From a virus (Duplodnaviria > Heunggongvirae > Uroviricota > Caudoviricetes), in IMG/VR virus record IMGVR_UViG_2916199983_000001: 55,726 nucleotides of DNA, one strand, 5' to 3'. Each line of letters opens with the position of its first letter. Positions within the stretch are counted from its first letter, which is position 1. Shown in pieces: positions 15,418-46,627 of this stretch. The position numbers were made by a program, and so were the translations under genes. The notes beneath the pieces are model-generated. The model had not been told where the DNA came from, did no database searches, and was given only the letters and a program-made list of their open reading frames with translations.

Positions 15418-15509
15418 AGATCCCTCTAAAACACTCAGAGCGCATCCTTGCGCTCCTAAACAACTTGTTTAATTCTGTGCCTAACCAATTTGTTTTCTGG
15501 GTGTTTAAA

Positions 15510-15610
15510 ACCGGGCTGGGGAGTATTCAGAGCCTGCTTCCGTATATATTTAATAAGTCACTTAGTATTTATATATACGGAAGCAGGCTCTCAAACTGGC
15601 TCCCAGACCG
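15510..15610. repeat. Long inverted-repeat element, copy 1
   Basis: Perfect 21-bp arms 15529-15549 and 15571-15591 around a 21-nt AT-rich core, plus imperfect outer arms. Confidence 0.9.
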
Positions 15611-15612
15611 AC

Positions 15613-15879
15613 TTACATCACCAGTAATTTGGCTCTGGCACGACCTAACGTGGTCAGTCCCAGCGTGCGACGGTGGTAGCCGGAATCACCGCGCTGGCGG
15701 CACATTCCTTTCTCCACCAGCCCCTTTTTCACCAGTGCGCGGATAGAGAACTGCATACTCTGTTTGGTCGTTTTGTACGGCAGCACTTCAAGCAGCTCGT
15801 CCAGATCGAGCAGATGCCCACGCTCATGGCCTAAATTGATGGTTTTGATGATGTCTTTTTGTTTGTCGGTCAACGTCAT
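15613..15879 (-). CDS. Small winged-helix DNA-binding protein
   Basis: LDLDELLEVL...SMQFSIRALVKKGLVEK...LGLTTLGR matches MarR-like wHTH pattern. Confidence 0.65.
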   Translation of the reverse strand: MTLTDKQKDIIKTINLGHERGHLLDLDELLEVLPYKTTKQSMQFSIRALVKKGLVEKGMCRQRGDSGYHRRTLGLTTLGRARAKLLVM

Positions 15880-15888
15880 GGCAAATCC

Positions 15889-16788
15889 TTATGCCGGTAA
15901 TGCAATTTCAAGAGGTTTATTCAAAGGCTGTTTGTCGAATGCCAGCAGTGGCAACGTGTCCGGCAGCTGACGACCAAAGTCCGGGTTTCGGTACACGCCA
16001 TACAGCGGAGAGGTGAAGCTCAGGTTGTGAATGTCCTTGAGCAGCTTCACGATGCTGGCCTCGTCCACCAGGCTGTCGGCAATGTCCTGAATCGTCGTGC
16101 CACGATTACGCCCGGCTTTGGCCAGGGAACTGTTCTTGTGGTAGTCAGCGACCAAATCACGCAGCGCACGACGACGGCGAGACTCACTCATGGCGAACAG
16201 CTCTTTGACGATCGCTTCGTTGTCACCAGGGTCGGAACGGAAATGACGCTGGAAGACGCGCAACGCACTCTCGTAGCTCTTCGGACGCTCCGGACGGATG
16301 AACTGGAACCCTGCTTTCATGGCGAACGGGTTGTATTTGCTCATCGACGACTGGATCTCGATGATTGGCCGGTCGTGCATCCTGCTAACCAGGTTAATCA
16401 TTCGATAGGAGACGCCGACGCCGCGGTACTGAGTGTCCACAACGGAACGGCTGATCACTGCAAAGTTGTTGTTCACGTACCGGCCCCAATACTGGTTGGC
16501 CACGGTGGTATTGGTGGTTGGCTTCAGCTTAGGAAACATGCGATGGCGAGGCGCCAGCAGCAGTTTCGGGTAAGCCATAACCACGACGCCCACCAGCCGG
16601 TCGTCCAGTTCGCAGCGATAATACGTTGGCGCGAACGGCTTACCATCCGTCTTGTAGTGCAGCGACTTCAGCGCGTGCCAGTCTTCAACCGTGCCTTTGG
16701 TAACGGTCATACGCTCCAGAAAGTCCAGATGACGCGGGAACTCTTCCGGGCGGTAGCGTTTGATGATGATGTCTGTCATGTCGATCAC
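15889..16788 (-). CDS. GNAT-fold acetyltransferase
   Basis: W..LKSLHY, LVGVVV and ISRSVVDTQYRGVGVS (R/QxxGxG/A acetyl-CoA motif). Confidence 0.7.
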   Translation of the reverse strand: MIDMTDIIIKRYRPEEFPRHLDFLERMTVTKGTVEDWHALKSLHYKTDGKPFAPTYYRCELDDRLVGVVVMAYPKLLLAPRHRMFPKLKPTTNTTVANQYWGRYVNNNFAVISRSVVDTQYRGVGVSYRMINLVSRMHDRPIIEIQSSMSKYNPFAMKAGFQFIRPERPKSYESALRVFQRHFRSDPGDNEAIVKELFAMSESRRRRALRDLVADYHKNSSLAKAGRNRGTTIQDIADSLVDEASIVKLLKDIHNLSFTSPLYGVYRNPDFGRQLPDTLPLLAFDKQPLNKPLEIALPA

Positions 16789-17039
16789 CTGCGCTCGATA
16801 TTGGCATTGATGAAGTCCAGGCGAAGCGATTCCATCGCCCCAACCATGACGTATGGACGCCCACCGTTATGCCAGCAATCCAGAACACTGCCGTCGTTGT
16901 TAATCATCAGCAGCGCCAGGCTCTGGCTTTTGCCTTCTCTGGCGTACTGGAGTGCTTCTTCCAGCAGGCGGATGACTTCAAGGTTGTTGTTATCTGCCTC
17001 TTTCGATGGTTTCAGCTCTACGATCTTCAAATCAGGCAT
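16785..17039 (-). CDS. Hypothetical protein
   Basis: 84 aa ORF overlapping both neighbours (translational coupling). Confidence 0.65.
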   Translation of the reverse strand: MPDLKIVELKPSKEADNNNLEVIRLLEEALQYAREGKSQSLALLMINNDGSVLDCWHNGGRPYVMVGAMESLRLDFINANIERR

Positions 17040-17670
17040 ATTCCACCTTCACGCGTTCTTTGTAGTGCTTGGTAATCTGCATATCCGGGCGCAGCGCGTT
17101 CTTCAGGTCTTCGTGGGTCGTCGCCACCATTACCGTCGCACCAACCTTTCGAGCGGCACGCTGGAGGTTCGACGCCACAACCTGAGCGGTTACACGGTCG
17201 AGAACAGCGCCAAATTCGTCGGCTGCCCAGACTTTGGCGCCTGACTCGATCAGCTTGGCAATCTTGAGGCGGTATTTCTGGCCGTCAGACATCTCGGATG
17301 GCTTGCGCACAAAGAGATAGGCGTCATTCAATCCGGCCATAGACAGCAGCCCCAGCGCTTCGCTGGTGGTTTTGCCCAGCTGGTCGATGACGTTAACCTC
17401 ATTGTCGAAGGTAAAGTCATCGATGGAGGCTACAGAAAGCCCTTCATCCTTCATCTGGCGTTGCAGTTCGCGCAGCACAACGGATTTGCCGGAACCGGAT
17501 TGGCCGGTGATGTACACCACATCGCCCTGCTTCACTTCCAGCTCCAGATTGTCGTAAAGCGTCCACTCTTTTTCGTCCAGGCCAAGACCGAACGATTCGG
17601 CAATCTCCAGCGTGCGCGTGGTTTTGTTCACGCGGGTCTGAAACGATACATTGATGGTGTATTTGCTCAC
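17032..17670 (-). CDS. Soluble ABC-type ATPase (no membrane partner)
   Basis: Walker A GQSGSGKS, signature MSDGQ, Walker B AADEFG, H-loop ATTH. Confidence 0.88.
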   Translation of the reverse strand: MSKYTINVSFQTRVNKTTRTLEIAESFGLGLDEKEWTLYDNLELEVKQGDVVYITGQSGSGKSVVLRELQRQMKDEGLSVASIDDFTFDNEVNVIDQLGKTTSEALGLLSMAGLNDAYLFVRKPSEMSDGQKYRLKIAKLIESGAKVWAADEFGAVLDRVTAQVVASNLQRAARKVGATVMVATTHEDLKNALRPDMQITKHYKERVKVEYA

Positions 17671-18335
17671 GCAGCCAGCTCCCCTGAAGAAACTTTCTCC
17701 GCATATGCCACGAAAGCGTCTACCCCGCTCTCTCCCGTGATTTCTTCCATGTGGGCAAGCAAATCCCCAACCACAATGGCAGAGCCAGCAGGGAGCGTTT
17801 TAAAGCCCAATACGTCGATGACGCGGACTTCTTCAGAGGCTACTTCGCGACTGATCTCGGTGTGCTCTTCTTTCTGGCGTTCCGTCTCTTCGCCCAGATC
17901 GAGCACCAGAGAGCCGGTTTCCATCTCTTCGGTCATGCTGCCGACAAGCACGTTCAGCTCGCGCTCTTCAAAACCGAAGACCTCGACGTCGCCCAGCACC
18001 AGGGATTCCAGTTCCTGCTGCAATTTGATGGCGTCGTAGTCAATACTGGCCAGGCGGTTGTCTTCCAGACGCTTCGCCTTCACTTCTTCTTCGCTCAGAT
18101 CGTCGCGAACGATGACCGGCACACGCTCCAGACCAGCCAGAAGTGCCGCCTCGCGACGACCGTGGCCAGTAATGATGACGTCGTGCTTGTCGACCGTGAT
18201 CGGCTGGTCAAAACCGCGCTTTTTGATGGCGGCCGCCAGGTCGCGGATCTGCTGTTCGTCATGTTTTTTGGCGTTCATCTCATACGGGATGAGTTCTGCC
18301 GGGTTTCGATAGACGATTTCAAAGTTTTTGGTCAT
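17667..18335 (-). CDS. ParB/sulfiredoxin N-terminal domain protein
   Basis: LIPYEMNAKKH, GFDQPITV and IITGHGRREAA motifs; ATG at 18335 overlaps upstream TAA. Confidence 0.85.
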   Translation of the reverse strand: MTKNFEIVYRNPAELIPYEMNAKKHDEQQIRDLAAAIKKRGFDQPITVDKHDVIITGHGRREAALLAGLERVPVIVRDDLSEEEVKAKRLEDNRLASIDYDAIKLQQELESLVLGDVEVFGFEERELNVLVGSMTEEMETGSLVLDLGEETERQKEEHTEISREVASEEVRVIDVLGFKTLPAGSAIVVGDLLAHMEEITGESGVDAFVAYAEKVSSGELAA

Positions 18336-19015
18336 TACATACGCTCCTTGTAGTAGTCGACCAGCCACACCAGGGCTTCCCCGGCGTTCTCCATTTCGTT
18401 ACCGGTATTGATTCCCTGCTCTTTGATGATGGTTTTGATGGTGTCGGCGACGCGATCTGACGCATCAAACGTCACTTTGAAGCGCATCGTCTGGTGTTCA
18501 GCGCCGACTCGCTCGGTTTTCTCGCGTTTGTCCTCATCGACCGGCTCGTCATCGCCACGGGAGAGCGCTTCCAGCGCTTCAAGATCGATAACGGACGCTT
18601 TGGCGAGTGTTGCCGCCATTTCGTCGTCATACGGGGCGATATCGGACAACCGGTAGTCGATTTCAGACTGGATTTCTTCGATTAAGCGCTGCAAAGCGAC
18701 CTGATCGTCTTCGCCGTAGCGTTCGTTATCGACGAGAGACATCTGTTTGGCCACCAGGTCGTTAATTTTGCCCACGGAGATGACGGGAACCGTTGAAATG
18801 CCCTGCTCCATCGCGGCACGCCAGCGGTGTTCGCCACCGAGGATCTCAAAAATGCCCCCGTCCAGCTCCCGCGCCAGAATTGGCTTAAAAAAGCCCAATT
18901 TTTCGATCGAGCCTTTCAGTTTTTCGAAGTTTTGCGCCCCAACGGAGTTGGTATTCCAGGGATTCGGACGCAGGTTCGCGACTTCCACCTGCAGAATCGT
19001 AATTTTCACATCCAT
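18335..19015 (-). CDS. ParB/sulfiredoxin N-terminal domain protein
   Basis: LRPNPWN, GFFKPIL and ILGGEHRWRAA motifs. Confidence 0.85.
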   Translation of the reverse strand: MDVKITILQVEVANLRPNPWNTNSVGAQNFEKLKGSIEKLGFFKPILARELDGGIFEILGGEHRWRAAMEQGISTVPVISVGKINDLVAKQMSLVDNERYGEDDQVALQRLIEEIQSEIDYRLSDIAPYDDEMAATLAKASVIDLEALEALSRGDDEPVDEDKREKTERVGAEHQTMRFKVTFDASDRVADTIKTIIKEQGINTGNEMENAGEALVWLVDYYKERM

Positions 19016-19097
19016 AATTCTGATACAATCCATTGTATAAGTACTTACTTACTATAATAGCCAATTACCATACAAAAGGCACGAAGGAAAGAGGTTT

Positions 19098-20657
19098 ATG
19101 ACAGTTCGGATTGTATCGAATGCAGTCAATGCGCTGATTTCTGGCGCTGATGACAACGTGAAACGGCTCGTTCAGGAGATGTTGAGCTATGAAGTGGAGG
19201 CTGGTGACTGGAAAGGAACCAGCACGATGTTCAACTGGAGCAAAAACGCGTTCCCGGCTGGGTTTGCGAAGCCAGTTGCAGCCAACCTTCTGAAAGCTGG
19301 CATCAAATGCGTGCATGTGCGCAAGGAAAAAGCCCCCGCGCTTGGCAAGCCGAACCCGGTAGTTAACCCATTCCCGTATAACCCGGACTATGCGTATCAG
19401 GATCAGACTGTGGAAACACTGGTGCGAGAAGGGATGATGATTGCCCAGATTGCGACGGGTGGCGGTAAATCGAACGTAGCGTGTAAGGCAGCTGCTCGCA
19501 TTGGTCGTATGACGCTGTTTTTAACCACGCGCTCGGTTCTGATGTTCCAGATGGCAGAGAACTTCCAGAAATCCATCGACTACCGCGCGGAGAATGGCGA
19601 GCCGTGGCTGAAAGGTCAGAAAGTTGGGGTGATTGGATCTGGTGAGTTCCAGGTCTCGCGCCATATCAACGTTGCCACGGTGCAGACCCTGGCCAGTTTT
19701 CTCGAAGAGCCACCGCGCGACGCATCACCGGAGAAAAAACAGTACCACCTGAAGCGCCGGGAACTGGTTAAGCGCTTTCTGTCCAGCGTTTCTCTGCTGA
19801 TTCTGGAAGAGGCACACGAATCATCTGGTTCAAACTTCTACGATATCGCCCGGTTGTGCATCAATGCCGATTACCGTCTGGCGCTGACAGCTACGCCGTT
19901 CATGAAGGACTCGACCGAAGCAAATATGCGTCTCATGGCCGTTGCCGGTCGCATTGAGATAAAGGTAACGGAGAAATATTTGATCGATCGAGGTATTTTA
20001 GCGAAACCATACTTTCTATATCATAAAATCGCGTACACTCCAGACGAGGTGCGGATTAGGGCCGAACTTGCTTCGAAACACCTGAACTTTCGGGTTGGAA
20101 TGAGTACGGCTTACCAGAAAGCCTATCAGTTAGGCATCGTTTACAATCTGGGCCGCAACGAGGCTATTGTGCGCGAAGCGTTAATGTACAAAAGTCACGG
20201 TCTGAACTGTATGACGCTGGTTCGTTTGAAGCGTCATGGTCAGATTTTGATGGAAATGATGAAGGAAAGCGGCCTGAAGGTCGATTTCATCTACGGAGAA
20301 TCAAACCAGACTACCCGACAAGCAAAGCTCAACAGTCTGGCGGCAGGCAAGATAGATGTTCTGATTGGTTCAACCATTCTGGATGTTGGTGTCGACGTTC
20401 CAAGCGTAGGGGCGGTGATTCTGGGTGGTGGCGGCAAAGCCGAAGTTGAGATGCGCCAACGTGTTGGTCGCGGTCTTCGAGCCAAAAAGAATCAGGCTAA
20501 CGTGTGCTTTATTACCGACTTTATCGACGTGAGCAACAAATATCTCATGTCGCATTCATATGAGCGGAAGCACATTATCGATACGACGCCTGGGTTTGCC
20601 GAGAGCGTTTTGCCGGTGGGTAGCACATTCGATTTCACTGTTTTGAATAGAGAGTAA
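19098..20657 (+). CDS. SF2 DEAD/DEAH-like helicase
   Basis: ATGGGKS Walker A, LEEAH motif II, LTATP motif III, QRVGRGLR motif VI. Confidence 0.92.
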   Translation: MTVRIVSNAVNALISGADDNVKRLVQEMLSYEVEAGDWKGTSTMFNWSKNAFPAGFAKPVAANLLKAGIKCVHVRKEKAPALGKPNPVVNPFPYNPDYAYQDQTVETLVREGMMIAQIATGGGKSNVACKAAARIGRMTLFLTTRSVLMFQMAENFQKSIDYRAENGEPWLKGQKVGVIGSGEFQVSRHINVATVQTLASFLEEPPRDASPEKKQYHLKRRELVKRFLSSVSLLILEEAHESSGSNFYDIARLCINADYRLALTATPFMKDSTEANMRLMAVAGRIEIKVTEKYLIDRGILAKPYFLYHKIAYTPDEVRIRAELASKHLNFRVGMSTAYQKAYQLGIVYNLGRNEAIVREALMYKSHGLNCMTLVRLKRHGQILMEMMKESGLKVDFIYGESNQTTRQAKLNSLAAGKIDVLIGSTILDVGVDVPSVGAVILGGGGKAEVEMRQRVGRGLRAKKNQANVCFITDFIDVSNKYLMSHSYERKHIIDTTPGFAESVLPVGSTFDFTVLNRE

Positions 20658-20659
20658 GC

Positions 20660-20938
20660 ATGAGCGAGAAACGCGCTATACACTGCCAGGTTCAGTTAAC
20701 CGAAAAAGCAAACGACAAGCTGGAAACCTTTCAGAATCGACTGCGTGAACGCAATATTAAGCTGTCAAAGGCAGACATCATCAATCTGGTGCTGTCCAAC
20801 ATGACGATGGCTGATTTTGATAAGGCAGCTACGTCATTAGAGGCTTCTGCAAAGGCCCGTGAAAAGGTCATGAAGATTTACGAATCCTCTGGCATGACCA
20901 AAGAAGATCTGGCCGATATTCTCAAACGTCTCGATTAA
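20660..20938 (+). CDS. Small protein, possible ribbon-helix-helix regulator
   Basis: CQVQLTEKANDKL...LSKADIINLVL fits the RHH strand-helix-helix pattern. Confidence 0.55.
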   Translation: MSEKRAIHCQVQLTEKANDKLETFQNRLRERNIKLSKADIINLVLSNMTMADFDKAATSLEASAKAREKVMKIYESSGMTKEDLADILKRLD

Positions 20939-21423: not shown

Positions 21424-21951
21424 ATGACGAATATTACTGACATCACCTACGGGATTCCTGCAGAAGTCTGGCCGCGCGATTACACCAACGTGGAGAAGGC
21501 GCTGATGTTCTGGCGTAAGTCTCTCATTCCTGTAAGGGTCACGATGGAAGATGGTCAGGTGTTCTGCATGTACGTTCAGGGTCTCATGTCGTCGCGCAAC
21601 AAAGTCGATCTTTGCCCTGCCCCGTTCGACAAAGAAAATCGTATAAGGCTCCCACTTGAGCGAATCAGTACGATTGAATCAGGTGTGACAGAAAGCATTG
21701 CGCACGATTTCACGGGTCGGACAACGGTACACCCAGACTATGTGGACAATCGGCCATCTCGCCGTGATTTCTTCAAAATTTGTCGCCAGGCTCATGAGAT
21801 GCAGAAGTCTATAAGGGTCTACATGGCGGATGGCCGTGAAATTGAGGGTGTGTCTTCAGGCGTTGACGCTTGCCAGGTCACGCTCAACATGGGGGACGGT
21901 CGGAAGACAGTCGTCATGTTCGATTGGGTCGAACGGATTTTACCGTTTTAA
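21424..21951 (+). CDS. Hypothetical protein with two Sm-like/SH3-like beta-barrel repeats
   Basis: Internal repeat VRVTMEDGQVF...LERISTIE / IRVYMADGREI...VERILPF. Confidence 0.55.
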   Translation: MTNITDITYGIPAEVWPRDYTNVEKALMFWRKSLIPVRVTMEDGQVFCMYVQGLMSSRNKVDLCPAPFDKENRIRLPLERISTIESGVTESIAHDFTGRTTVHPDYVDNRPSRRDFFKICRQAHEMQKSIRVYMADGREIEGVSSGVDACQVTLNMGDGRKTVVMFDWVERILPF

Positions 21952-23824: not shown

Positions 23825-24307
23825 TTACTTGCCAGCCAGGATGTGAATGCGGTTCTTTCCGTACACCTCTTTCACGTAGTCCCCGCACGAGATACTCCAC
23901 GAGTCGATTCCTGCTTCATAGATGACGTTTTTGCACTTGATGGCGTTGTTGGCGATGCGCATTCCCTCCCCCACTGCTTCCTGTTCGCTGAAGTCGAACC
24001 CGGATTCTGTTTTAACCCATAGCGCGATCTGCGTGGCGAACTCGATGAGTTTTGACTGGCAGAAGCGACCGCTGCGTACCGGGAAGATGAATACGCCAAA
24101 TCCCGAGGTGGAGACATACGCTTTCTCAAATACGCGCTTATGGCGACGGTTGCAGATAATGTCATTGGTGATCTGCTGTTTCTCTTTCCCGGACAGCTCG
24201 ATGGCTACATTGTCACGCCAGGCGCCCAGCACGCTTTTCTCGTTATCAGAGAACGTCACAGAAATATGGCCATGCGCAGGGGTGTTAACAGTAGCGATAA
24301 AATTCAT
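23825..24307 (-). CDS. Hypothetical protein
   Basis: 160 aa ORF with AGGA RBS behind a repeated promoter cassette. Confidence 0.75.
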   Translation of the reverse strand: MNFIATVNTPAHGHISVTFSDNEKSVLGAWRDNVAIELSGKEKQQITNDIICNRRHKRVFEKAYVSTSGFGVFIFPVRSGRFCQSKLIEFATQIALWVKTESGFDFSEQEAVGEGMRIANNAIKCKNVIYEAGIDSWSISCGDYVKEVYGKNRIHILAGK

Positions 24308-24321
24308 ATCATCAATCCTTT

Positions 24322-24355
24322 AAACAACTTGTTTTCTTGTTGGTTTAATTATCGC
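24322..24355 (-). promoter_or_regulatory. Repeated promoter/operator cassette (GATAAT + AAACAA-N-TTGTTT); also at 24814, 25769, 26359, 29315, 33194, 33918, 46576
   Basis: Near-identical ~33-bp AAACAACTTGTTTTCTTGTTGGTGTWATTATC blocks just upstream of RBSs of leftward genes. Confidence 0.8.
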
Positions 24356-24512
24356 TACGCGCATAAGGTGTCCAAGCGTTCTGTTCCGGCAGCTGGTGGC
24401 CGGCAGGGAGTCGGAGAGTTGTTCGGTAGCCTGGCGGCAAGAGGTGGGTGTTTTTAGCCTGCGGGAAACAGGATGGTCATTTAAGGCCACCAGCGTGGGT
24501 GGCCTCGTTCTC

Positions 24513-24794
24513 TTAGTGGAGCAAACCGACGTCGATGGTATCGCCGGAGCCATCCACGCGGATCATCAGCATGGCGAAGGCATTTAGTGGGTAGCCTGCG
24601 TGCCAGTCCGGGAAGCGGTCATCGCGCATGAAGTCGGCAATGTCATAAACGCTGTCCTCAAAGCGGAAGAAACGGGCATCACATTGTTCGTCCTGTTCAA
24701 CGTGATCCATTTCCTGCTGCTCTTCCGGCGACAGGTCGAGCCAGGATTCCAGCCATACGTTTTCAGCTTTAGGGGAGATGGTGAAATCGGTCAT
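24513..24794 (-). CDS. Hypothetical acidic protein
   Basis: ORF behind cassette 24814; GGAGG RBS fits ATG at 24794. Confidence 0.7.
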   Translation of the reverse strand: MTDFTISPKAENVWLESWLDLSPEEQQEMDHVEQDEQCDARFFRFEDSVYDIADFMRDDRFPDWHAGYPLNAFAMLMIRVDGSGDTIDVGLLH

Positions 24795-24920
24795 GTGCAT
24801 ATCCTCCATGCGTAAACATCTTGTTTTCTTGTTGGTGTAATTATCGCAATGTGGATAAGGCAAAAAACATTTTGTTATCGGGAATAAGAAAATGGCGCGG
24901 GGTACGCGCCATTGGAGGGA

Positions 24921-25444: not shown

Positions 25445-25756
25445 TCAGGCTGTCGCCAGGAGAGAGGCACGCTGGATTTCTTGCTGGGCTACTTTGTTCG
25501 CTTCCAGTAGCGCCTGTTCCAGCTCTCCTTCCGGCCAGATGATCTGTTTTGCCATCCACCCTCTTCCACTCTGGCGACGCACACTCATTACGTAACGCGT
25601 GCGGGAACCATTGTCGAACGAGACCAGCGTCTCTTTGAACAGGCGAATAGCAGTGCCGTTGGCGATGATATCGAGCAGGGTCAGCTGGCTCATTACGGTT
25701 GGTTTTTCTTTACGTGGCTGGCCCGCGCTCAGTTTGGTGATCATCGCGTTTTTCAT
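25445..25756 (-). CDS. Hypothetical protein
   Basis: 103 aa ORF with GGAG RBS behind cassette 25769; terminator AGCCCCG/CGGGGCT near 25390-25412. Confidence 0.7.
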   Translation of the reverse strand: MKNAMITKLSAGQPRKEKPTVMSQLTLLDIIANGTAIRLFKETLVSFDNGSRTRYVMSVRRQSGRGWMAKQIIWPEGELEQALLEANKVAQQEIQRASLLATA

Positions 25757-25896
25757 AATTCACTCCGTAAACAACTTGTTTTCTTGTTGGTGTAAATAAT
25801 ACCAGCGAGAAAACGGCTACAAAGCATAGCGTTACGGTGCTGCGCTGCCCCGGAGGTTGCAAACAGCAAAAAGCCACCGTGCTGGTGGTCTCACTC

Positions 25897-26125: not shown

Positions 26126-26341
26126 TCACTTCGTTTCTGACGTCGTGCAGTTCCACGCGACGGACATTGGGTTGTCCTCGATATGGAAATCAAACGTCCC
26201 TTCTCTATATCCTTCAGAGATGAGCGTCGCCACGCGACCAGCAACATCCTGGGAACGGATAACGTCATCGAGGGAGATCTCACACTCGGAGGACTCTTCC
26301 TCGCCACAGAGGGTGATGCTGATATTCAGATGCTTGTACAT
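26126..26341 (-). CDS. Hypothetical acidic protein
   Basis: 71 aa with AGGAG RBS behind cassette 26359. Confidence 0.7.
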   Translation of the reverse strand: MYKHLNISITLCGEEESSECEISLDDVIRSQDVAGRVATLISEGYREGTFDFHIEDNPMSVAWNCTTSETK

Positions 26342-26486
26342 GTGTTTCTCCTTTGTCTAAACACGTTGTTTTCTTGTTGGTGTTATTATCGCAATAAGAA
26401 AACGGGGAAAAAGAATTCCTTAAAGGCTGATGTGCTTGTGCCGATTTATTGCTATGTATGTATCTGGCTAACTCAGAGGGAATGTG

Positions 26487-26729: not shown

Positions 26730-27179
26730 ACGTCCTCGGCGATTTCACCACCAAAACCCGTAACCCTTTACACTAGATCTGGCTTCCCGATATGAGCGTG
26801 CGAAGCTGATCTGGTCTCAATGCTCAACTGCGGGATTCACCAATTCCCGCACTATTCAGGTGAATGAGGAAAAGGCATACTCCCGCAGCCGTCCCTCGCT
26901 CTGAACTGGGATGTACCCGTTTCCCGACCGGCAGCCAGCCTTTTCCCTGCGGCGATGCCCCCGTTCCTGAAAAGGAACATGGCCTTTTCCCTAGATGGCC
27001 CGAAGGCTGACCGAAGGGGTGGATAGGGACGTTACGGGGGATGAAAACTATGGCTTGAATTTCTACGGAGAAAGTAGCGATACCCCTCTTCCCCTTCCCA
27101 CTTATACCTCCAGTTAAATCTCTACGGATTTTCTCTCCTGTGGACGTGTAAACCTTCCCCCTGATAACGCTCTATACGG

Positions 27180-27900
27180 CGAGTATTCCTTTGGGTGAAA
27201 TGGGTGGTTTGTTCTCTCTACCGGCGTATGTGGTTTCGTTGTTCTTGAGGTGGTTCTTCTCTGTGTTTTCGTCTGGGTTGTTCTCGTCGTTTTGGTGAGT
27301 GTTCTTCTCCGTGTATAGAGTAATGGCATGTGCGCTTCTCTCTTCGTTTACGTGAAGAGATGGAAGTGTGGGTAATGGCAGTAGGGCGCTTTTGTTGTTC
27401 TCCGCATATGAAGTAATGGCGTTCCCTGCTATTCAGGAATTTGCGCTCCCTTTCGGGGTAATGGTGGGTAAACGAGATTGCGACGGTTCCTGTTCTGGTC
27501 TGGGTTTGTCCGGGGTTTCGTTCTGGCTGTTCTTCTCCGTGTATTGGGTAATGGCGTGTAGGGGTTTGCGTGCGCGAGCTGCGTTCTCGGTTGCCTGGGG
27601 AGATTAGGTGGGTGGTCTGTAGCCTGGGGCAAAGAGGTGGGTCTTTTCGGTAGCCTGACAGGAAGAGGTGGGTGTTTCCGGGATTGTGGGTAATGGCGTC
27701 TCTGGTTTTCCTGTGGGTGTGGTTAACTTGTTTTCTTGTGCCTGAAAACAACTTGTTTAGATGTCCAATATAACGCAACGGGAGCGCTTCTGAGCGTGTC
27801 TGTTTTTGGGTGGTATCACGAGTCGTTTTTGACGTTTTGGTCGCAGGGAGATGGATTCTGGTGCGTAGGATTTTGGGTATAAGAGATGGCTTGCGAAAAC
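27180..27900 (+). repeat. Non-coding G/T-skewed tract with direct repeats
   Basis: 27-mer GTTCTTCTCCGTGTAT-N3-GTAATGGC-like copies at 27301, 27394, 27529; TAGCCTG-N6-AGAGGTGGGT at 27620 and 27651. Confidence 0.75.
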
Positions 27901-28101
27901 GTCAACTTTTTAGACCAAATCAAGGGAAAGCGTTGACTTTTCGTTGATGTGTTATTTATTTGTTTTCTTATGGGTGTAATTGGCTTAAATGCCTTGTCAC
28001 GCCTGGGCTGGGGCAGGTTGGAGGGGTGGGGAAAGTGGCGATCAACGGACTCTTATAGAAATCCTCAATTTGTGACCGCCAATGTCAACGAGTTGCAGCC
28101 G

Positions 28102-28748: not shown

Positions 28749-29069
28749 TCACCAATCCCATGCAGGCAGCCCATCCACCATCTCGGCGTCGCAATCGAAG
28801 TGAACCGCGTCATAGCCGGCATCCAGTACCTTCTGAATGTTCTCGATGGTTTGCCATGTGACGCCGTAATCACGTAGCTCTTCTTTCCAGTCGTTGCCAC
28901 GCATACCTGCGCGGACAATCCATCCGTACTCCGTGCCGTGTACCCAATTCAGTCCACGATCTGTTAGTGGGTCGAAACAGATATTAGGCAGACACTCAGA
29001 GTCATGCTGTGTAACGTGGGCGGTGCTGATCACCGCCGTCTTATACGATTCGGTGATTTTCAGCATCAT
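28749..29069 (-). CDS. Hypothetical protein
   Basis: 106 aa ORF coupled to upstream gene; ISTAHVT...YGW...FDCD pattern. Confidence 0.7.
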   Translation of the reverse strand: MMLKITESYKTAVISTAHVTQHDSECLPNICFDPLTDRGLNWVHGTEYGWIVRAGMRGNDWKEELRDYGVTWQTIENIQKVLDAGYDAVHFDCDAEMVDGLPAWDW

Positions 29070-29302
29070 GCCTTCTCCTTTGGAAACAGAATGTCGGCCG
29101 TGTCAGAAATGACATCCCAATTCACACCGACGCTGGCGTCATGGCACTCTTTGATTTTTCGCAAAACCTGAACGCACTGTTTGTCAGTCAGATCTGGTCG
29201 CACTTCACCTACATCTTCCTTGTGCCACATTACCATCAGCAGCGGCTCGTCTTCTGGGTAGTTCTCCAGCTTTTCGATGATGTCTTTTGCGGTTCCGAAC
29301 AT
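29066..29302 (-). CDS. Hypothetical protein
   Basis: AGGAG RBS behind cassette 29315; start MFGTAKD. Confidence 0.7.
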   Translation of the reverse strand: MFGTAKDIIEKLENYPEDEPLLMVMWHKEDVGEVRPDLTDKQCVQVLRKIKECHDASVGVNWDVISDTADILFPKEKA

Positions 29303-29387
29303 GATTAACTCCTTAAACAACTTGTTTTCTTGTTGGCGTTATTATCTAAAATAACAAAAGGCAGAAAACAAGATGTTTAAGGGATGA

Positions 29388-29654
29388 TTAGGTGAGTTTG
29401 AAGTCGTCCGCATCGTCGACGAACTCCATAAATCTGGCCTCCACGCTTGAGTGCGTTATCAGAAACTCAAGACCCCTTCCAAGCGAGGTTGGTTCTTCCA
29501 GCAAAAACTCGAACCCATCTTCATGAGTCCTGCCTAACCAGTATCCGCCGCCATACTCCTTCAATCGTTGAAAGAAAACGTACTGCCCCGGTTTGAAATT
29601 TTGAAGAGTCTCGCCCCTATAAACGATCTGATAGTTTGAGTCTTTGAGTCCCAT
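29388..29654 (-). CDS. LexA-box-controlled small hypothetical protein
   Basis: MGLKDSNYQIVYRGE...; GAGGG RBS directly after SOS box. Confidence 0.75.
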   Translation of the reverse strand: MGLKDSNYQIVYRGETLQNFKPGQYVFFQRLKEYGGGYWLGRTHEDGFEFLLEEPTSLGRGLEFLITHSSVEARFMEFVDDADDFKLT

Positions 29655-29711: not shown

Positions 29712-29841
29712 CTTTGCGGGTTAAGGGAATAACAAGGTGGTGAAAACAATTTGTTTCGGCACTTGAGATTTTGCAAACCGCACATACATGAAAAGCGGCA
29801 ATTTTTGAAACCTGATTTGACCCAAGTGAAAGGAGGAAACG

Positions 29842-30045: not shown

Positions 30046-30072
30046 TTTAATAATCTAGAAAACAAATTGTTT

Positions 30073-30092
30073 AAGGCCACTACTGTGGCCTT
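30073..30092. terminator. Hairpin between convergent genes
   Basis: AAGGCCAC-TACT-GTGGCCTT. Confidence 0.6.
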
Positions 30093-31495: not shown

Positions 31496-33181
31496 TCATT
31501 TTACGCGTTTGAAAACGTATACGCTTACAGTGATTCCGGTGTCTTCAAACTCGTCAGTAAACGACTTCCCTTTGGCATAAACGTAATTATCCAGCGTCAT
31601 CCAGTTCAGAGCTGGCGCATCACCCGGCAGTACTGCCACCAGTCGCCCGCCGACTTTAAGATGCTCCAGCGCGGTCAGCGTATGCTCTCTGTGACGGCCA
31701 AGAGAGTAGGGCGGGTTCATGACGATTTTGTCGAACTGATAGCCTGCGTTGTCCTCAGACCACTTCATGAAGTCGCAGCAGACCGTATTTGTGTACCCCT
31801 TGCCAATCAGGATATCAGCGAAGAGAGGTGCGACTTCTATGCAGGTAACGTCTTCCGGATTGGCGTCGATGCAGGCCAACAGATCTCCGCGCCCGGCTTC
31901 AGGCTCCAGCAGCTTCTCACCTGACTTCAGCTCGATGGCTCTGGCAACGTACTCCGCTATCAAACGCGGGGTAGGGTAGAACTGGTGTGATTTTGTATCC
32001 GGTATTAAGCCAGTGGCCACAATCGTATTTAGCGTATGACCGATCTCATACGGGAACTGCCAGTGCTTTTTCTCCTGCACACCGCCAATGAAGTTCAGTG
32101 TGCGCTCAAGCTCTTCCACCTGTGACTTCTGTAGGTTGGAATCAGAGAAGTACCAGACGCCTTTGTCTTTGCTGAATCGCCCGTCGCGCAGCGCGGTACG
32201 AACCGGCTCGGAGATCGTCTTCTGGATTAACCCGAACTCTTTTGGTGCCGGTGTTTTGGGTGCAGTACGGCATGGCGCCGGGATTGCTGCAGGCATACTG
32301 TAAGCCAGCACCTCATTCAGCTTCCAGGCCACGTCAGGATGTATTTCAAAGTGAACGTTGCCGTTCTTGAACATCTTCACGCGCATCAGGTTTCCGTCGA
32401 CATTCATCCAGTCACCGGTCTGGCAGTCGTTTGCCCGGTACGCAGCTGATAGCATCTCAGTTGTGCGGTTGATGGTGATGAACTCTTTGTGCGCGAAGAA
32501 ATGAAGCATGACGCGCAGGTCGTCGATGTAGTCCTCTTTCCGGTAGTTCACGCTCACGCTGTCCCGCCAGAACTCGGAAATGAAGTTGGCGATGATCAGA
32601 CGCTCGCTAAAGCCGTTCGTCTTATTGGTCTTGTGGGCAGGACTCAGCGCCTTAAACAAGCCATACACGCGCTCAGAGAGATATTTGTGCCTGTCATTCA
32701 GCAGATTGAGCATCGTGGGGATGACCGTTTCTGCTTTGAACTCCGGCACGCCAACGAACTCCTTAACCTTCATCTGGTAGCCGGTTCTGTCAGTCCTGAT
32801 GGTTTCCTGTTTGCCTTCGATGAACTGCTCACGCCACTCGTCGCGGCGGGAAGCTGGCATGATCAGCAGAACGTTTGTCATATCCGTGACCTTCTTCCAG
32901 TACTCGGCCCAGATATTCTGTTTCACCCATTCAAGGTCGACCTTGTCCAGCCAGGCTCTGTTAAAGCGTGTGCGCTCGTCATCCGGCCGGTGGTTGAGTC
33001 GCAGTAGGCGGTTAATCATGTTGTGGCGTTCGTCGCCATAAATGAAGTCGTGAACCTGATGCATGAATGCGATCTCTTTCTCGCACTCGGCCACAATTTC
33101 GTGGATGACGTTCATTTCCTGCCGGTAGTCGATATCAGTGTTTGGGGTGATAGCGTCAATGATAGAAAGAGCTGTATTCAT
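31496..33181 (-). CDS. DUF4942-type protein with C-terminal N6-adenine methyltransferase domain
   Basis: HQFYPTP, LEPEAGRGDL (motif I), DKIVMNPPY (motif IV), LKVGGRLVAVLP. Confidence 0.85.
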   Translation of the reverse strand: MNTALSIIDAITPNTDIDYRQEMNVIHEIVAECEKEIAFMHQVHDFIYGDERHNMINRLLRLNHRPDDERTRFNRAWLDKVDLEWVKQNIWAEYWKKVTDMTNVLLIMPASRRDEWREQFIEGKQETIRTDRTGYQMKVKEFVGVPEFKAETVIPTMLNLLNDRHKYLSERVYGLFKALSPAHKTNKTNGFSERLIIANFISEFWRDSVSVNYRKEDYIDDLRVMLHFFAHKEFITINRTTEMLSAAYRANDCQTGDWMNVDGNLMRVKMFKNGNVHFEIHPDVAWKLNEVLAYSMPAAIPAPCRTAPKTPAPKEFGLIQKTISEPVRTALRDGRFSKDKGVWYFSDSNLQKSQVEELERTLNFIGGVQEKKHWQFPYEIGHTLNTIVATGLIPDTKSHQFYPTPRLIAEYVARAIELKSGEKLLEPEAGRGDLLACIDANPEDVTCIEVAPLFADILIGKGYTNTVCCDFMKWSEDNAGYQFDKIVMNPPYSLGRHREHTLTALEHLKVGGRLVAVLPGDAPALNWMTLDNYVYAKGKSFTDEFEDTGITVSVYVFKRVK

Positions 33182-33323
33182 GATTGCACCATTAAACAAA
33201 TTGTTTTCTTGTTGGTGTTATTTTCCCAAACTAGAAAAGGCGTAAAAGCAGCATTCACAGGCGTTGCAGCTGATTTAAGGCGTAAAAATGGGGGGCTTTC
33301 GCCCCCTGTCGGCAGGTGAGAAA

Positions 33324-33896
33324 TTAGTGGTGTACGTGCTGCGTTTTGTGCGGCTGTTTGTTCAGGTCGTGGCGATGCGTAAGCTCGCGCATCATGTCTT
33401 CAAGACGACTCTTGGTGTCGTCAAGCTGGTCGGCCATTGCCCCCAGCAGCTGGCGAACGGCCATCGGATCGTCGCTGTTCAGCTCAGGCATTTTGAACCC
33501 AGACTGTGAAGACATCAGTTTGAAAGCGGCCAGCAACATCGCCAGAGAAGACTTCAACCCGGCGATTTCACGATCTTTGCTGGCGTTGGTTTCATCTGCC
33601 TTGACTGAATCCGGTGAGCACTTCGGCTTGCTTACCATTTCCAGAGTTGCCTGAAGTTTGTCGGCGCGTTCTTTCTCTTCCAGATACGCTTCGCCGAAAT
33701 GACGCGCCAGCATCACAATTTCAATAGGATCATCAATCATGCTAGAGAACTTGAGAGCGCTGAAAAGGCGGTCGATAGGGGAGGCGTAGTCTTCGTGACC
33801 AACCACAAGACCCATGATCTCAACCAGTTCGGCCGCACCAACTTTTTTAATCACGCTTTCAACTTTGGCATTAGTTTTTTTGCATTTTTCGCACAT
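33324..33896 (-). CDS. Hypothetical coiled-coil protein
   Basis: ORF behind cassette 33918; terminator GGGGGC/GCCCCC at 33291-33306. Confidence 0.7.
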   Translation of the reverse strand: MCEKCKKTNAKVESVIKKVGAAELVEIMGLVVGHEDYASPIDRLFSALKFSSMIDDPIEIVMLARHFGEAYLEEKERADKLQATLEMVSKPKCSPDSVKADETNASKDREIAGLKSSLAMLLAAFKLMSSQSGFKMPELNSDDPMAVRQLLGAMADQLDDTKSRLEDMMRELTHRHDLNKQPHKTQHVHH

Positions 33897-34013
33897 GTGT
33901 TTTTTCCTTATGTTTTTAAACAAGTTGTTTTCTAGATGGCGTTATTATGGCGTGACTGAAAAGGTGGGCAAACGCTACGTAAAGGCGGACGCCCACGCTG
34001 AAGGTCTTCATTG

Positions 34014-38702: not shown

Positions 38703-38819
38703 CGGTCTGGGAGTTGTTTGGAAATCACGTCTTAAAAAGCCTGCGTCTGTATATATTAATAATTAGTACTTAGTTATTTATATATACGGAAGCAGGTTCT
38801 CAAACTAACTCCCAGACTG
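38703..38819. repeat. Long inverted-repeat element, copy 2
   Basis: Homologous to 15510-15610; outer arms CGGTCTGGGAGTT-GTTTG / CAAACTAACTCCCAGACTG, inner arms AGCCTGCGTCTGTATATAT / ATATATACGGAAGCAGGTT. Confidence 0.85.
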
Positions 38820-41131: not shown

Positions 41132-41140
41132 TCGTACTCC

Positions 41141-41560: not shown

Positions 41561-41623
41561 TCTGTTTTTCCTCGATTCATTTCGCGTGTCTTATTGTCAC
41601 ACTGCCCAACAGGGGAGCAACAT

Positions 41624-43154: not shown

Positions 43155-43155
43155 A

Positions 43156-44259
43156 TCACACCGCCACTGGAACCTTGATCCACGGAAGAGGGCTGTAGCC
43201 GCACACCTGCACACCTTCCCATTTGAAGTCGTCCAGTTCGGCCCATTCATGCGGGAAGATGACAACCGGGTCGGACTCTTTGGGCGGCTCGCGCTTCATC
43301 AGTTCCTCAACGCCTTCCATGTGGTTGTCGTAGAGATGAACGTCAAAGCCAAAATGCACGAATGCGCCAGCCATGTGGCCGGTGATCTTCGCGAGGAAGT
43401 GGGTGAGAATGCCGTAACCGGCGATGTTGAACGGCATACCAACAAAGGTATCGACGCTGCGCTGCACCAGGCATGAGTTCAGAATGCGTTTCGGGATGCC
43501 CAGCTCGTCCAGCATGTTCTCAGTAATGCCGCCATCTCTTTCCAGAAGACACAGCATCTGGGTGTAAATGGACTCGTGGCCGTGGCGGTTGTGCTGAATG
43601 CCAATATCGGTGGCCATCGTCAGTCGGGTCTCAAAGTCCAGCTCGCGACTCCACAGTGAAAACACGAAATGGCATGGCGGCAGCTTCATATCTTCCAGTT
43701 CGCCAACATTCCAGGCATTCAGCAGGATGCGACGATCTGTCGGGTTGGTGCGAAGCGTGTGAACGATACGCTGTAGCTGGTCGATTTCACGGGACAACAC
43801 AACGCGATCTTCGCTTACGCCCAGATACCCCTCGACCTTGTACCCGCGCTCACGGAACGTGTCGATTTTGCTCAAATACTCGCTATGGCTCACGATGCGG
43901 GTGTCTTCCCACCGACGCCATTGCTTGCCATAGACCGGGCCTAAATCGCCATTTTCATCAGCCCAGGCATCCCAGATTTTGACGCCATTGTCTTTCAGGA
44001 ACTGGATGTTGCCCGTTCCTTTGAGATACCACTCCAGCTCAACCAGTAACGGCTTCAGATTGACGGCTTTTCCGGAGATAAGTGGAACAGAGCCGCCCGT
44101 CAGCATGTAGTAGGAAGGGACATATGAAACGCTTTTTGTGCCGGTTCCGGTGCGATCACCAGCGTGAACGCCAGTGTTGAGCACCGTTTCAACCACTTTG
44201 GCATACGAACCACTGGCAAACTGACCGTTCGTAAAGTCTCGATTCAGTAGGATAGACAA
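43156..44259 (-). CDS. thyA: Thymidylate synthase
   Basis: DRTGTGT, IWDAWADENGDLGPVYG, LPPCH, QRS.D, PFNIA.Y; TTG start at 44259 inferred from GAGG RBS. Confidence 0.95.
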   Translation of the reverse strand: MSILLNRDFTNGQFASGSYAKVVETVLNTGVHAGDRTGTGTKSVSYVPSYYMLTGGSVPLISGKAVNLKPLLVELEWYLKGTGNIQFLKDNGVKIWDAWADENGDLGPVYGKQWRRWEDTRIVSHSEYLSKIDTFRERGYKVEGYLGVSEDRVVLSREIDQLQRIVHTLRTNPTDRRILLNAWNVGELEDMKLPPCHFVFSLWSRELDFETRLTMATDIGIQHNRHGHESIYTQMLCLLERDGGITENMLDELGIPKRILNSCLVQRSVDTFVGMPFNIAGYGILTHFLAKITGHMAGAFVHFGFDVHLYDNHMEGVEELMKREPPKESDPVVIFPHEWAELDDFKWEGVQVCGYSPLPWIKVPVAV

Positions 44260-44347
44260 AATCAACCTCACACAAGATAAGTAAGTACATACACATTATT
44301 TTATACAAGTTTATCTGTCAGAAGTGTGTAAGGCTAGGAGGGGAGTA

Positions 44348-44377
44348 AAAAAAATGGTGGCTCTTAGGCCACCATTG
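44348..44377 (-). terminator. Intrinsic terminator
   Basis: AATGGTGGC/GCCACCATT stem followed by a T-tract on minus strand. Confidence 0.75.
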
Positions 44378-44448
44378 CAATGAGCAATTAAGAACTTGGA
44401 CAATAAAACACGCCAAGGCAATATATAATGATAAGTAGATACTTACAA

Positions 44449-45318
44449 TTATTTTTTTACCATCTCGTAAAGAGATGATGATTTCGCCTTCTCAACAAAG
44501 CGAGTCAGATCCACATCGCTGTAGGTCGGGGATTTGAGGATCTTGCCATCAGAAATTCTGAAGCCAATCATCATGTCAGTCCCTTCAGCATGGCGGAAGC
44601 CCAGGTCTTCCTTGTCGTATTTGCAATTCTCTACCGCCACACGACGCTCTTCGGCGTCAGCCGGCCACAGCTTGGTCATGTTGGAGCGATGGATTTCTGC
44701 CACCAGCTCAACAATATCGATACCGAGAAAATCAGCCAGGCGGTAGGTCATCATGCAGGCAACGTAGATTTTGTTCATCACGCGGCGCAGCTCCTGCACC
44801 AATTCGGAATCGCTTATCGGCTTCGCTTCTAGTTTGTCAGCCAGCGCATTCAGCATTAATGCAGCTTCTTTTGCTTCTTCAAACGGGATGGCCATATCGT
44901 CAAAGACCGTGTTGCCCGGAACCATGATGGTGTGGATGAAGCGATCAACACTCTGCTCTTGGGTGTAGTAGCTCATGCCCGTAGAGATTCCGCCTTTGAT
45001 GGCCACCATTGTGCCGACGCCCACGTAAAGGAAGTCAGCCATCGCGTCCAGCAGTGCCGTCATATCCCCATTTTTGGCTGCCGGGATGCCCTCGGTAACA
45101 GCTTCTTCGTGGATCAGCTTGGCACGCAGACGCAGTAATGCCGGATCTGGAATGGCACGGCGTGGGTGCTGAAACAGTGTGTGGAACTGGTCAACCATCA
45201 GGTAGATGCTTTCCGTTGCCTTGCCAAAACCAGGATTCAACTCGTAAGGCTCTGGCTTAAATCCCACGAGTTTGTCTGCGGCAAGTTTCAGATGATCGGT
45301 CAGTTTCGTAAATTTCAT
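44449..45318 (-). CDS. MazG-like all-alpha NTP pyrophosphohydrolase (dUTPase-like)
   Basis: LIHEEAVTE, LDAMADFLYV, EIHRSNMTK, GKILKSP.Y motifs. Confidence 0.8.
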   Translation of the reverse strand: MKFTKLTDHLKLAADKLVGFKPEPYELNPGFGKATESIYLMVDQFHTLFQHPRRAIPDPALLRLRAKLIHEEAVTEGIPAAKNGDMTALLDAMADFLYVGVGTMVAIKGGISTGMSYYTQEQSVDRFIHTIMVPGNTVFDDMAIPFEEAKEAALMLNALADKLEAKPISDSELVQELRRVMNKIYVACMMTYRLADFLGIDIVELVAEIHRSNMTKLWPADAEERRVAVENCKYDKEDLGFRHAEGTDMMIGFRISDGKILKSPTYSDVDLTRFVEKAKSSSLYEMVKK

Positions 45319-45400
45319 GTCTTCTTTCTTTCCTTTGGACTTCATTTGATACGTCAATTGTGACCCAGCAGCGCCAGGCCACAAAGTGGTTAAACTCGGC

Positions 45401-46543
45401 TTAAAGGTCTGCGAACTGGCTCAGGCCGGAGCGATCGACAGCGGAGTCAATCTGGCCAACGAGGTAGTTGCTTTGTTCAGCTTCCTGCGGAGCGATCTGC
45501 AGGGTGTCTGACAGCAGCCATTTGTTCATCCATACCAGTGGATCGTCTTTGATTTCCGGGAACAGCGGTCGCAGCCCAAGACGACGCATTGCCAGGTTGG
45601 TGCGGTATTTCACATAGCTTTTGAGGATGTCGGCATTCAAGCCAATCATTGCGCCGTCTTTAAACAGATAGTCAGCCCAGCGCATTTCCTGCCCGGCCAC
45701 GTCCATCATGGTCTGATAGATGAAGCTCTCTTCTTCTGCGGCAATCATCTTCCACATCAGACCTTCACGACCGGTACGCATAAAGCGGATCATGCGTTCA
45801 GTACCTTCGCAATGCAGAGCCTCGTCGCGCGCGATGAAGCGCATGATCTTCGTGTTGCCCTCCAGCAGCTTCCGCTCACCAAAGGCGAACGTACATGCAA
45901 AGCTCACGTAGAAGCGAATCGCCTCCAGTGCATTCACTGACACCAGTGTGCGGAACAGCTGGCGCTGGAGAGGGTAGGGCTTGCCATCAAACTCGCTGAC
46001 ATACAGCCGTTCAAATTCGTCTTCGCCAAGATGCTGGCGAGCGCAGGTCATTTCGTACAGTCTGTCATATTCGCTTGAGATGCTTACAGCCCGGCTGATG
46101 ATCTCTTCGTCCGTGACGATGCCGTCGAAAACGATGCTCGGGTCATCCACCATACCGCGGATAATGTGGGTATAGCTGCGGCTGTGAATCGTCTCAGAGA
46201 ACGACCAGGTCTCAACCCATGTCTCCAGCTCAGGAATGGAGATCAGCGGCAGTAGTGTTGCGTTTGGACTGCGACCCTGAACGGAATCCAACAGCGTCTG
46301 GTAACGCAGGTTGCTCAGAAAAATATGGCGTTCGTGCTCTTGCAGCTTGGTATTGAAGTCGATGCGGTCAGTGGTAATGTCGACTTCTTCAGGGCGCCAG
46401 AAGAACGAGAGTTGTTTCTCAATCAGCTTTTCGAAGTCACGGTACTTTTGCTGATCGTAGCGTGCTACGTTGACAGACTGGCCGAGGAACATAGGTTCCT
46501 TCGTTGCGTCGTTAGCGCCCAAACGGAAAGTAGAATAAGTCAT
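45401..46543 (-). CDS. nrdB: Ribonucleotide reductase class Ia beta subunit
   Basis: [39 protein letters not shown]. Confidence 0.96.
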
Positions 46544-46627
46544 GTGTTTCCCTCTGAATGTTATCGAGTGGCTTTAAACAAATTGTTATCTTATTGGTTT
46601 AAATAAGGTGCTCAACTCAATGAAAAG

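Follow-up and report, generated by a model that had tools for sequence, protein, structure and literature searches.

The stretch of DNA considered here, IMG/VR virus record IMGVR_UViG_2916199983_000001 (55,726 nucleotides, referred to at its full length as the window), shows 100% identity with the Citrobacter sp. RHBSTW-00570 plasmid pRHBSTW-00570_3 (119,726 bp), where it spans positions 64001-119726, and contains dispersed copies of the 13-base palindrome AAACAA-N-TTGTTT. Over 93% of the query, its accessory region is 95% identical to the Salmonella phage SSU5, and it additionally matches 786 plasmid records from Klebsiella, Escherichia, Enterobacter, Yersinia, Salmonella, and Citrobacter, and because of these two kinds of match the element is classified as an SSU5-type phage-plasmid. 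Such phage-plasmids are very common in Enterobacteriaceae, include relatives of pHCM2 and pMT1, and in some cases carry resistance genes, while their control of lysis-lysogeny and gene expression is essentially undescribed. Nearly all genes are located on the minus strand, with the late genes extending from terS downwards and the replication, nucleotide-metabolism, and accessory genes lying elsewhere; Rfam and tRNA scans of the window found nothing. For comparison, four complete genomes were used, namely this plasmid, SSU5, Cyrano (from E. coli LF82), and a phage-plasmid from Klebsiella that is 75-80% identical.

Within the window, AAACAANTTGTTT (AAACAA-N-TTGTTT, 13 bases) occurs in nine exact copies against an expectation of 0.00. 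When one mismatch is permitted, the number of copies of AAACAANTTGTTT rises to 14, where 0.19 are expected and the largest shuffle yielded 2; these nine exact and five one-mismatch copies occupy every one of the 14 coordinates listed in the original prediction. The whole plasmid holds 18 copies, and the four beyond the window are found in the leaders of parA, a DnaB-like helicase gene, and a cobT-like gene and in the ninX region.

Eight of the 14 window copies (24322, 24814, 25769, 26359, 29315, 33194, 33918, and 46576) are embedded in a conserved block on the minus strand. The block begins with a T-rich element and a -10-like hexamer, continues after 4 nt with CCAACAAGA and the palindrome, and closes with a Shine-Dalgarno (SD) sequence and ATG. 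The repeated promoter block proposed earlier is supported, and the exact 15-mer CCAACAAGAAAACAA is common to six of the eight cassettes. The -10-like hexamers read GATAAT, TATTAT, GAAAAT, or CATAAT, and a TGn extension precedes them in four cassettes (24814, 25769, 26359, and 33194) rather than in two, as had been counted originally. Because only one of the eight, the one with a scorable -35, passes a two-hexamer sigma-70 scan, the cassette promoters are predicted to be of the -10-only or extended -10 type.

The genes behind these cassettes are mostly small. The cassette at 24322-24374 (minus strand, as are all of the following) has an exact palindrome at 24322-24334 with GATAAT 13 nt upstream of it and heads gene 23825-24307 (160 amino acids, aa). 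The cassette at 24814-24866 (palindrome 24814-24826, one mismatch; extended -10 TGcGATAAT) heads gene 24513-24794 (93 aa). The block at 25769-25821 (palindrome 25769-25781, exact; TGgTATTAT) precedes gene 25445-25756 (103 aa), and its orthologous site is exact in the Klebsiella, Cyrano, and SSU5 genomes; that at 26359-26411 (palindrome 26359-26371, one mismatch; TGcGATAAT) precedes gene 26126-26341 (71 aa). The cassette at 33194-33246 (palindrome 33194-33206, exact; TGgGAAAAT) leads into a DUF4942, methyltransferase-like gene at 31496-33181 (561 aa), and the only cassette with a recognisable -35 (TTGCCC-16-CATAAT), at 33918-33970 with an exact palindrome at 33918-33930, leads into gene 33324-33896 (190 aa). 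A diverged cassette in the nrdA-nrdB spacer, at 46576-46628, carries a one-mismatch palindrome at 46576-46588, is preceded by a terminator-like hairpin, and heads nrdB (45401-46543). The claim that each cassette heads a short accessory gene therefore holds for most of them, which precede genes for products of 71-190 aa, but not for the two that head a long gene (that of the 561-aa DUF4942 protein) or a housekeeping one (nrdB).

The remaining cassette, at 29315-29378 on the minus strand, has two operator-like sites, a proximal exact copy at 29315-29327 (approximately +14) and a distal one-mismatch copy at 29366-29378 (approximately -38). The two copies stand 51 bp apart on either side of the -10, with a DUF1380 gene (29066-29302) and gene 28749-29069 behind them, and the same pair is present in SSU5 (88319/88370) and Cyrano (93114/93165).

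Two side observations concern the cassette sequences themselves. A perfect DnaA-box sequence, TTATCCACA, occurs once in the window, at 24850-24858 on the minus strand, a short way before the -10 of the 24814 cassette, and may be due to chance. Additionally, an A/C-rich CCAACAA leader directly upstream of the SD persists in distant relatives without the palindrome, as seen in L159 (leaders 6140, 7769, 9157, and 14118), and for this reason the cassette spacer may have existed first as a translational leader, with the operator as a later addition.

Six window copies, at 15458, 15483, 27746, 29366, 29744, and 30060, fall outside the cassette type. The first two form a pair 25 bp apart (15458-15495; 15458-15470 exact, 15483-15495 with one mismatch) in the late-operon leader of the terS-like gene 14776-15417; SSU5, Cyrano, and pMT1 retain both sites, and the Klebsiella relative has one of them. 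A conserved, terminator-like GC hairpin with a T-run, located at 15438-15456 on the minus strand (z -2.75), separates them from the terS start. Just upstream of the pair, at 15534-15586, lies an inverted repeat of about 54 bp (arms CTGCTTCCGTATATAT) that occurs at only one other place, 38741-38795, and could belong to the late promoter region. The exact palindrome at 27746-27758, situated in a gene-less stretch of 1.37 kb, has an extra half-site, AGAAAACAA, at 27728-27736 on the minus strand. Another exact copy, at 29744-29756, lies between ydfZ (plus strand) and gene 29388-29654 (minus strand); on the minus strand, a degenerate block of the distal type, TTGTTTTCACCACCTTGTTATT, comes after it. 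Finally, the palindrome at 30060-30072 and a bidirectional terminator hairpin at 30073-30092 together make up a 37-bp unit at 30056-30092.

The position of the palindrome relative to promoters was assessed in a pool of 72 copies from the four complete genomes, with promoters predicted from -10-like hexamers. At 20 of the 72 sites a strong hexamer has its end 20-21 bp before the centre of the palindrome, and at 5 it ends 31 bp downstream of the centre, where 0.12 are expected per offset. Taking the hexamer as -12 to -7, the palindrome centres fall at approximately +14 and -38, and where both positions are occupied, as in the 29315/29366 pair and its SSU5 and Cyrano equivalents, they are 51 bp, or roughly five helical turns, apart. 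Of the 72 copies, 46 have AGA as an extension of the half-site on the promoter-proximal side and 7 have TCT (5 of the 72 being distal by the hexamer test), a pattern in which the 3-nt extension points toward the -10. The distance from the palindrome centre to the start codon is loose, ranging from 18 to 47 nt. The fixed register with the -10, the loose register with the start codon, and the copies outside any 5' untranslated region (UTR) favour an operator that acts at the level of DNA over a signal in the RNA. Furthermore, no significant RNA structure was detected in the cassette leaders (fold z -0.4 to -0.8).

The palindrome is highly conserved, under selection, and restricted to this type of element. 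At one mismatch or fewer, 20 copies are present in SSU5, 18 in Cyrano, and 16 in the Klebsiella phage-plasmid, in the same leaders; across nine orthologous leaders, the 12 specified palindrome positions are 97-98% identical, against 54-69% in the 40-nt flanks. Loci from IMG/VR contigs of about 100 kb, with less than 30% nucleotide homology to the four references, hold 6-10 copies before unrelated genes, and a scan of viral contigs for the exact motif returned, among the matches listed, relatives and single chance matches. The nearest whole genome measures 4.9 Mb; its phage-plasmid contig of about 111 kb carries every one of the 13 exact copies and 20 of the 33 near copies, while the remaining 4.8 Mb or so contains 13 near copies against 18 genome-wide for a reversed-pattern control. 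Because the motif is at background outside the phage-plasmid contig, that is, on the host chromosome, a site for a host factor or a host regulon is unlikely. Six sites are also kept in pMT1, which lacks the ParA partner discussed below; as a recent, near-identical derivative, pMT1 is uninformative on the binder.

Expression in the plasmid state was taken from published per-gene values for Cyrano lysogens in LF82 (PMC9928086, supplementary file 2; median background 9.8), which refer to a relative and not to the present strain. Genes directly behind exact palindromes gave 7.1 (terS), 5.7 (CYRAN_58), 7.0 (CYRAN_85), 7.1 (CYRAN_87), 7.5 (CYRAN_101), and 12.2 (CYRAN_106), and the helicase reached 21, about twofold background (PMC9928086). 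The parA operon, with values of 50, 89, and 55, was the only motif-headed unit that was on, and induction of Cyrano by ciprofloxacin amounted to 39-fold (PMC9928086). In this relative, motif-headed units are at or near background in the plasmid state, the parA operon excepted, which fits repression. RNA-seq assemblies of other carriers cover the region as contigs, in one study as flat 50-kb contigs, and between-contig depth of this kind cannot rank genes.

From the sites, their conservation, their promoter geometry, their restriction to the element, and the low lysogen expression in Cyrano, we infer that AAACAA-N-TTGTTT is the DNA operator of a dimeric repressor encoded by the phage-plasmid itself, a reading judged somewhat better than even (probability roughly 0.55). 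The dimeric protein would sit at the palindrome in either or both of two fixed positions around weak promoters that mostly have no -35 and often have an extended -10, with its centre at approximately +14, between the -10 and the ribosome-binding site, and/or at approximately -38, over the -35 position. Occupied sites would block RNA polymerase, such that about 18 transcription units would be off or throttled while the element lives as a plasmid. Among these units are the accessory-gene cassettes and the parA operon, together with the leaders of the helicase, cobT-like, and nrdB genes and of the late gene terS; new accessory genes arriving with a cassette, or landing behind one, would join the same control. 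The literature searched contained no publication with the motif or describing SSU5 operators. The motif would mark a regulon of about 18 units with a precise promoter geometry, offer an experimental handle for finding the regulator, and illustrate how newly acquired accessory genes come under common control. As an observation the motif is real and useful, yet in principle unsurprising, and the more interesting question is whether the partition protein is the silencer.

Three proteins can be ranked as candidate binders. The leading one, proposed tentatively, is a 117-aa ribbon-helix-helix-like partner of the type-Ib ATPase ParA, encoded by the gene after parA, with the pattern IKSRTMS..EDE..F.RSDVIRAAI (beta-strand/helix/turn/helix) and a remote homologue that shows the canonical pattern VRVTLRV..RSDALRNAI. 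Each of the four complete genomes has a copy of the palindrome 35 nt before the start of parA, and this placement provides an argument from autoregulation in favour of the ParA partner. A lineage in which the partner is only 31% identical has a one-mismatch site at parA and an exact site at the helicase, and another lineage has two AAAACAA half-sites in the parA leader. Less likely is the second candidate, a 92-aa ribbon-helix-helix-like protein (20660-20938, plus strand) that belongs to no known family and is encoded in a plus-strand cluster after a UvsW-like helicase; its pattern, RAIHCQVQLTE..LSKADIINLVL (beta-strand/helix/turn/helix), was recognised by eye and its fold is not confirmed. 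Its Cyrano orthologue, CYRAN_117, stands at 12 times background in lysogens, where the orthologues of both the 117-aa and the 92-aa candidates are expressed (PMC9928086). Third, and an improbable choice, is a 128-aa helix-turn-helix (HTH) protein, the "master repressor" considered below; the rest of the probability goes to some other binder. Should the ParA partner be the binder, a single protein would both segregate the plasmid and, by way of the dispersed 13-bp operators, silence approximately 18 promoters of the early, accessory, replication, and late-leader kinds. This combined reading is held as a speculative one; if true, partition and lysogeny maintenance would form one circuit in SSU5/pHCM2-type phage-plasmids, and the promoter-operator cassette would be a portable device for recruiting accessory genes.

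Several observations weigh against an element-encoded repressor and its ribbon-helix-helix-like candidates. The parA operon carries the site yet is expressed in lysogens, and the silence of the other units could equally reflect the lack of an activator, given that a single window cassette passes the sigma-70 scan. The ribbon-helix-helix assignment of both candidates was made by eye only, and Pfam searches, PDB profile searches, hhalign, and monomer AlphaFold models gave nothing significant for either fold. Specifically, the 117-aa partner yielded a monomer AF2 model with a pLDDT of 69 and nothing meaningful in Foldseek against the PDB, VIA-align wide, or a PDB profile search; the 92-aa protein yielded a low-confidence model, nothing relevant in a relaxed Pfam scan, and a probability of 3% in hhalign against the partner family. 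The only named language-model leads for the candidates are to ribbon-helix-helix families at 0.87-0.90, unconfirmed by Pfam, PDB, or model searches, and include an Atlas lead of 0.90 from the ParA partner to PF18064 that has no Pfam, PDB, or fold match. Additionally, one lineage with a similar partner beta-strand has no site in the parA leader, and no dispersed palindrome was found over 14 kb of early genes in two distant lineages that keep the ParA partner with changed beta-strand residues. The parA leader also has a palindrome of its own, TATATCGCATATA, which abuts the AAACAA site and could be the real operator of the partner.

An AT-rich region with repeated CAGTAT units lies between a toxin-antitoxin pair and parA (plasmid record 49440-49660, outside the window). 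Either this region or the TATATCGCATATA dyad may be the centromere or operator that the partition system actually uses.

The arrangement can be compared with several known systems. KorB of the IncP-1 plasmids (RK2/RP4) is a large ParB-family HTH protein whose OB sites lie at approximately -40 or far from promoters. The likeness comprises a 13-bp palindrome of 6+1+6 form, about a dozen or more copies at the promoters of one replicon, global silencing of the replicon's own genes, and one copy tied to a ParA-type partition operon. In the present element, by contrast, the ParA partner has 117 aa and no ParB domain, the sites are at +14 and/or -38, and binding is putative; two ParB_N proteins of the element lie away from parA, and their Cyrano orthologues are unexpressed in lysogens. 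In the phage-plasmid P1, many scattered operators likewise place separate operons under one repressor during plasmid-state lysogeny. The P1 C1 operators, however, are asymmetric 17-mers with copies at the c1 gene itself, whereas the site described here is a symmetric 13-mer that is absent from the HTH repressor control region, and a second, unrelated palindrome family heads other operons.

The omega protein of pSM19035 (inc18), which functions with the ParA protein delta, is a small ribbon-helix-helix centromere binder and a regulator of several promoters. It shares with the present system the type-Ib ParA context and the use of short direct and inverted repeats (compare AACAAG-AA-AACAAG-TTGTT in the cassette), but omega requires arrays of 7-10 contiguous heptads at three promoters, whereas 2-3 half-sites are found here at about 18 phage-plasmid promoters, and the fold of the partner is unconfirmed. 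The system would appear to work in the manner of KorB/OB, P1 C1, and omega. Each of these nevertheless has a defining feature that is missing here, namely a ParB-family binder encoded beside ParA, operator copies at the gene of the HTH repressor, and arrays of heptads, respectively. The promoter-early stem-loop (PeSL) cassettes of T4-type phages, for which modular gene shuffling has been proposed, combine sigma-70 early promoters with a stem-loop and have no operator. They resemble the present cassettes as a repeated promoter block before many small accessory genes in a plastic region, with some indels bounded by repeats, and differ from the -10-only promoter with its operator palindrome, for which support for recombination consists of two junctions.

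Among the alternatives to a repressor acting in the plasmid state, a regulator of the lytic cycle is unlikely, although it fares best. The site would in that case serve an activator of promoters without a -35, or a Cro-like shut-off factor that also acts on the late leader, and silence in lysogens would reflect the absence of this factor or of upstream transcription. The lack of a -35 in most cassettes is consistent with an activator. The two terS-leader sites before a conserved terminator-like hairpin are reminiscent of late-gene antitermination, and several small DNA-binding candidates adjoining the late operon are unexpressed in lysogens. However, repressors typically occupy the interval from the -10 to the SD, centred at +14, and activators rarely do. 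The extended -10 elements of four of the eight cassettes can work without a -35, and the parA operon is expressed in lysogens with a site in its leader.

Slightly less probable still is the operator of the lysogeny (immunity) master repressor, to which the original prediction had assigned the motif. The protein in question is the 128-aa HTH protein encoded beside the integrase (record 19567-19953), the orthologue of CYRAN_45, which the LF82 study treats as the master repressor (PMC9928086). In lysogens CYRAN_45 is expressed at 96 against the background of 9.8, with the motif-headed genes at or near background (the helicase at about twofold). The positions of the sites are repressor-like, and dispersed operators of one repressor are known from the phage-plasmid P1. 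Nevertheless, the divergent control region of the HTH gene (record 19303-19566, facing a 70-aa gene) contains other dyads and no copy of the motif at three mismatches or fewer, and for this reason the HTH protein is probably not the binder. A 13-bp site with half-site centres 7 bp apart is also short for a classical HTH dimer. What stands of the original assignment is an operator of the protein-binding type, as suggested by the fixed -10 spacing, the footprints, the lack of RNA structure, and the near-background expression downstream; the lysogeny repressor as its binder is doubtful.

Lineage comparison bears on the same point through a second palindrome family, which was found de novo. Its consensus is ATAGGTAAGTACTTACCTAT; the copies, about 25 in number, head other operons, and none comes closer than 409 bp to an AAACAA site. 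The 18-bp sites are located in the window at 6465, 10061, 11988, 13502, 19034, 25357, 31478, 34838, 38373, 39431, 44278, 49014, and 53705, with 12 more in the rest of the plasmid. Taken together, the two families indicate that almost all operon starts of the element bear one or the other dispersed operator; neither family occurs in the control region of the 128-aa HTH protein. In the divergent lineage L154 the second family reads TATGTAAGTGTATACATA, whereas AAACAA-N-TTGTTT is unchanged. Invariance of the 13-bp motif across lineages in which the other family differs is not as expected of an immunity determinant, whose specificity usually drifts.

The sites might instead be dispersed parS-like centromeres of the type-Ib ParA system with no regulatory role, an explanation that was advanced earlier as an alternative and is here considered very improbable. 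The copy 35 nt upstream of parA in all four genomes and the resemblance of the ParA partner to a small centromere-binding protein, with its lead to PF18064 and its unconfirmed fold, agree with this explanation. A pure centromere, however, would have no need of a fixed register with -10 hexamers and gene starts. The sites are dispersed, single or paired, and form no arrays: the parA leader has one, and no other locus has more than two. As a centromere, the AT-rich CAGTAT repeats before parA would be the more conventional choice. Of the earlier alternative, a second role in partition may hold, given the parA-leader copy in every relative, while the promoter-anchored sites at large do not conform to it.

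A translational operator in the 5' UTR of the mRNA is similarly far from probable. It would be bound, for instance, by the full-length FljA-family protein encoded at 21424-21951 (plus strand; PF03614, E 1e-96), which is conserved in SSU5, Cyrano, and pMT1; proteins of the FljA type block translation of fliC mRNA (PMC2652032). Such an operator would suit the position of 55 of the 72 copies, which lie beside the SD and 11-65 nt before a start codon. The register with the -10 rather than with the start codon, the copies at -38 and beside terminators, which lie outside 5' UTRs, and the unstructured leaders speak against it. As a binder, the FljA-family protein is unsupported, the host fliC/fljB leaders of the nearest genome being unlike the motif, and the literature searched gave no operator sequence for FljA-type proteins. 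Independently of the palindrome, the phage-plasmid may shut down host flagellin by means of this protein, since the target of FljA-type proteins is the phase-1 flagellin mRNA of the host.

The repeats had also been proposed as recombination points for accessory genes, and two indel junctions do fall inside them. A 2-kb LprI/HD module, present in SSU5 and two other relatives, is flanked there by two copies of the 37-bp unit 30056-30092, whereas the present plasmid has one copy of the unit and no module, which corresponds to a junction overlap of 37 bp; a 685-bp insert in Cyrano shows a junction overlap of 14 bp that involves two cassettes. Homology frequently picks up again 50-53 bp before a site or breaks off 7-10 bp past one. 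Over all pairwise comparisons, 8-14% of breakpoints lie within 75 bp of a site, against a uniform expectation of 2-3% and 11-16% for random intergenic positions; breakpoints are thus no closer to the sites than such intergenic positions. These data partly support the cassettes as module boundaries and occasional recombination substrates, with recombination not as their main explanation. That the repeats serve mainly for gene gain and loss, with regulation secondary, is accordingly the least probable account, since most indels between the 95%-identical Citrobacter and SSU5 genomes end outside the repeats and the replication, parA, and terS leader copies occupy conserved, non-variable loci.

The gene-less stretch that holds the 27746 palindrome extends over 26730-28101 (1.37 kb). 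It is G-poor on the minus strand and contains five copies of GCCATTAC(CCA) at 27320-27697, together with a good sigma-70-like promoter near 27900. Rfam found nothing in it, and its depth is high in the RNA-run contigs of one study; the stretch could be a non-coding RNA or an iteron-type origin.

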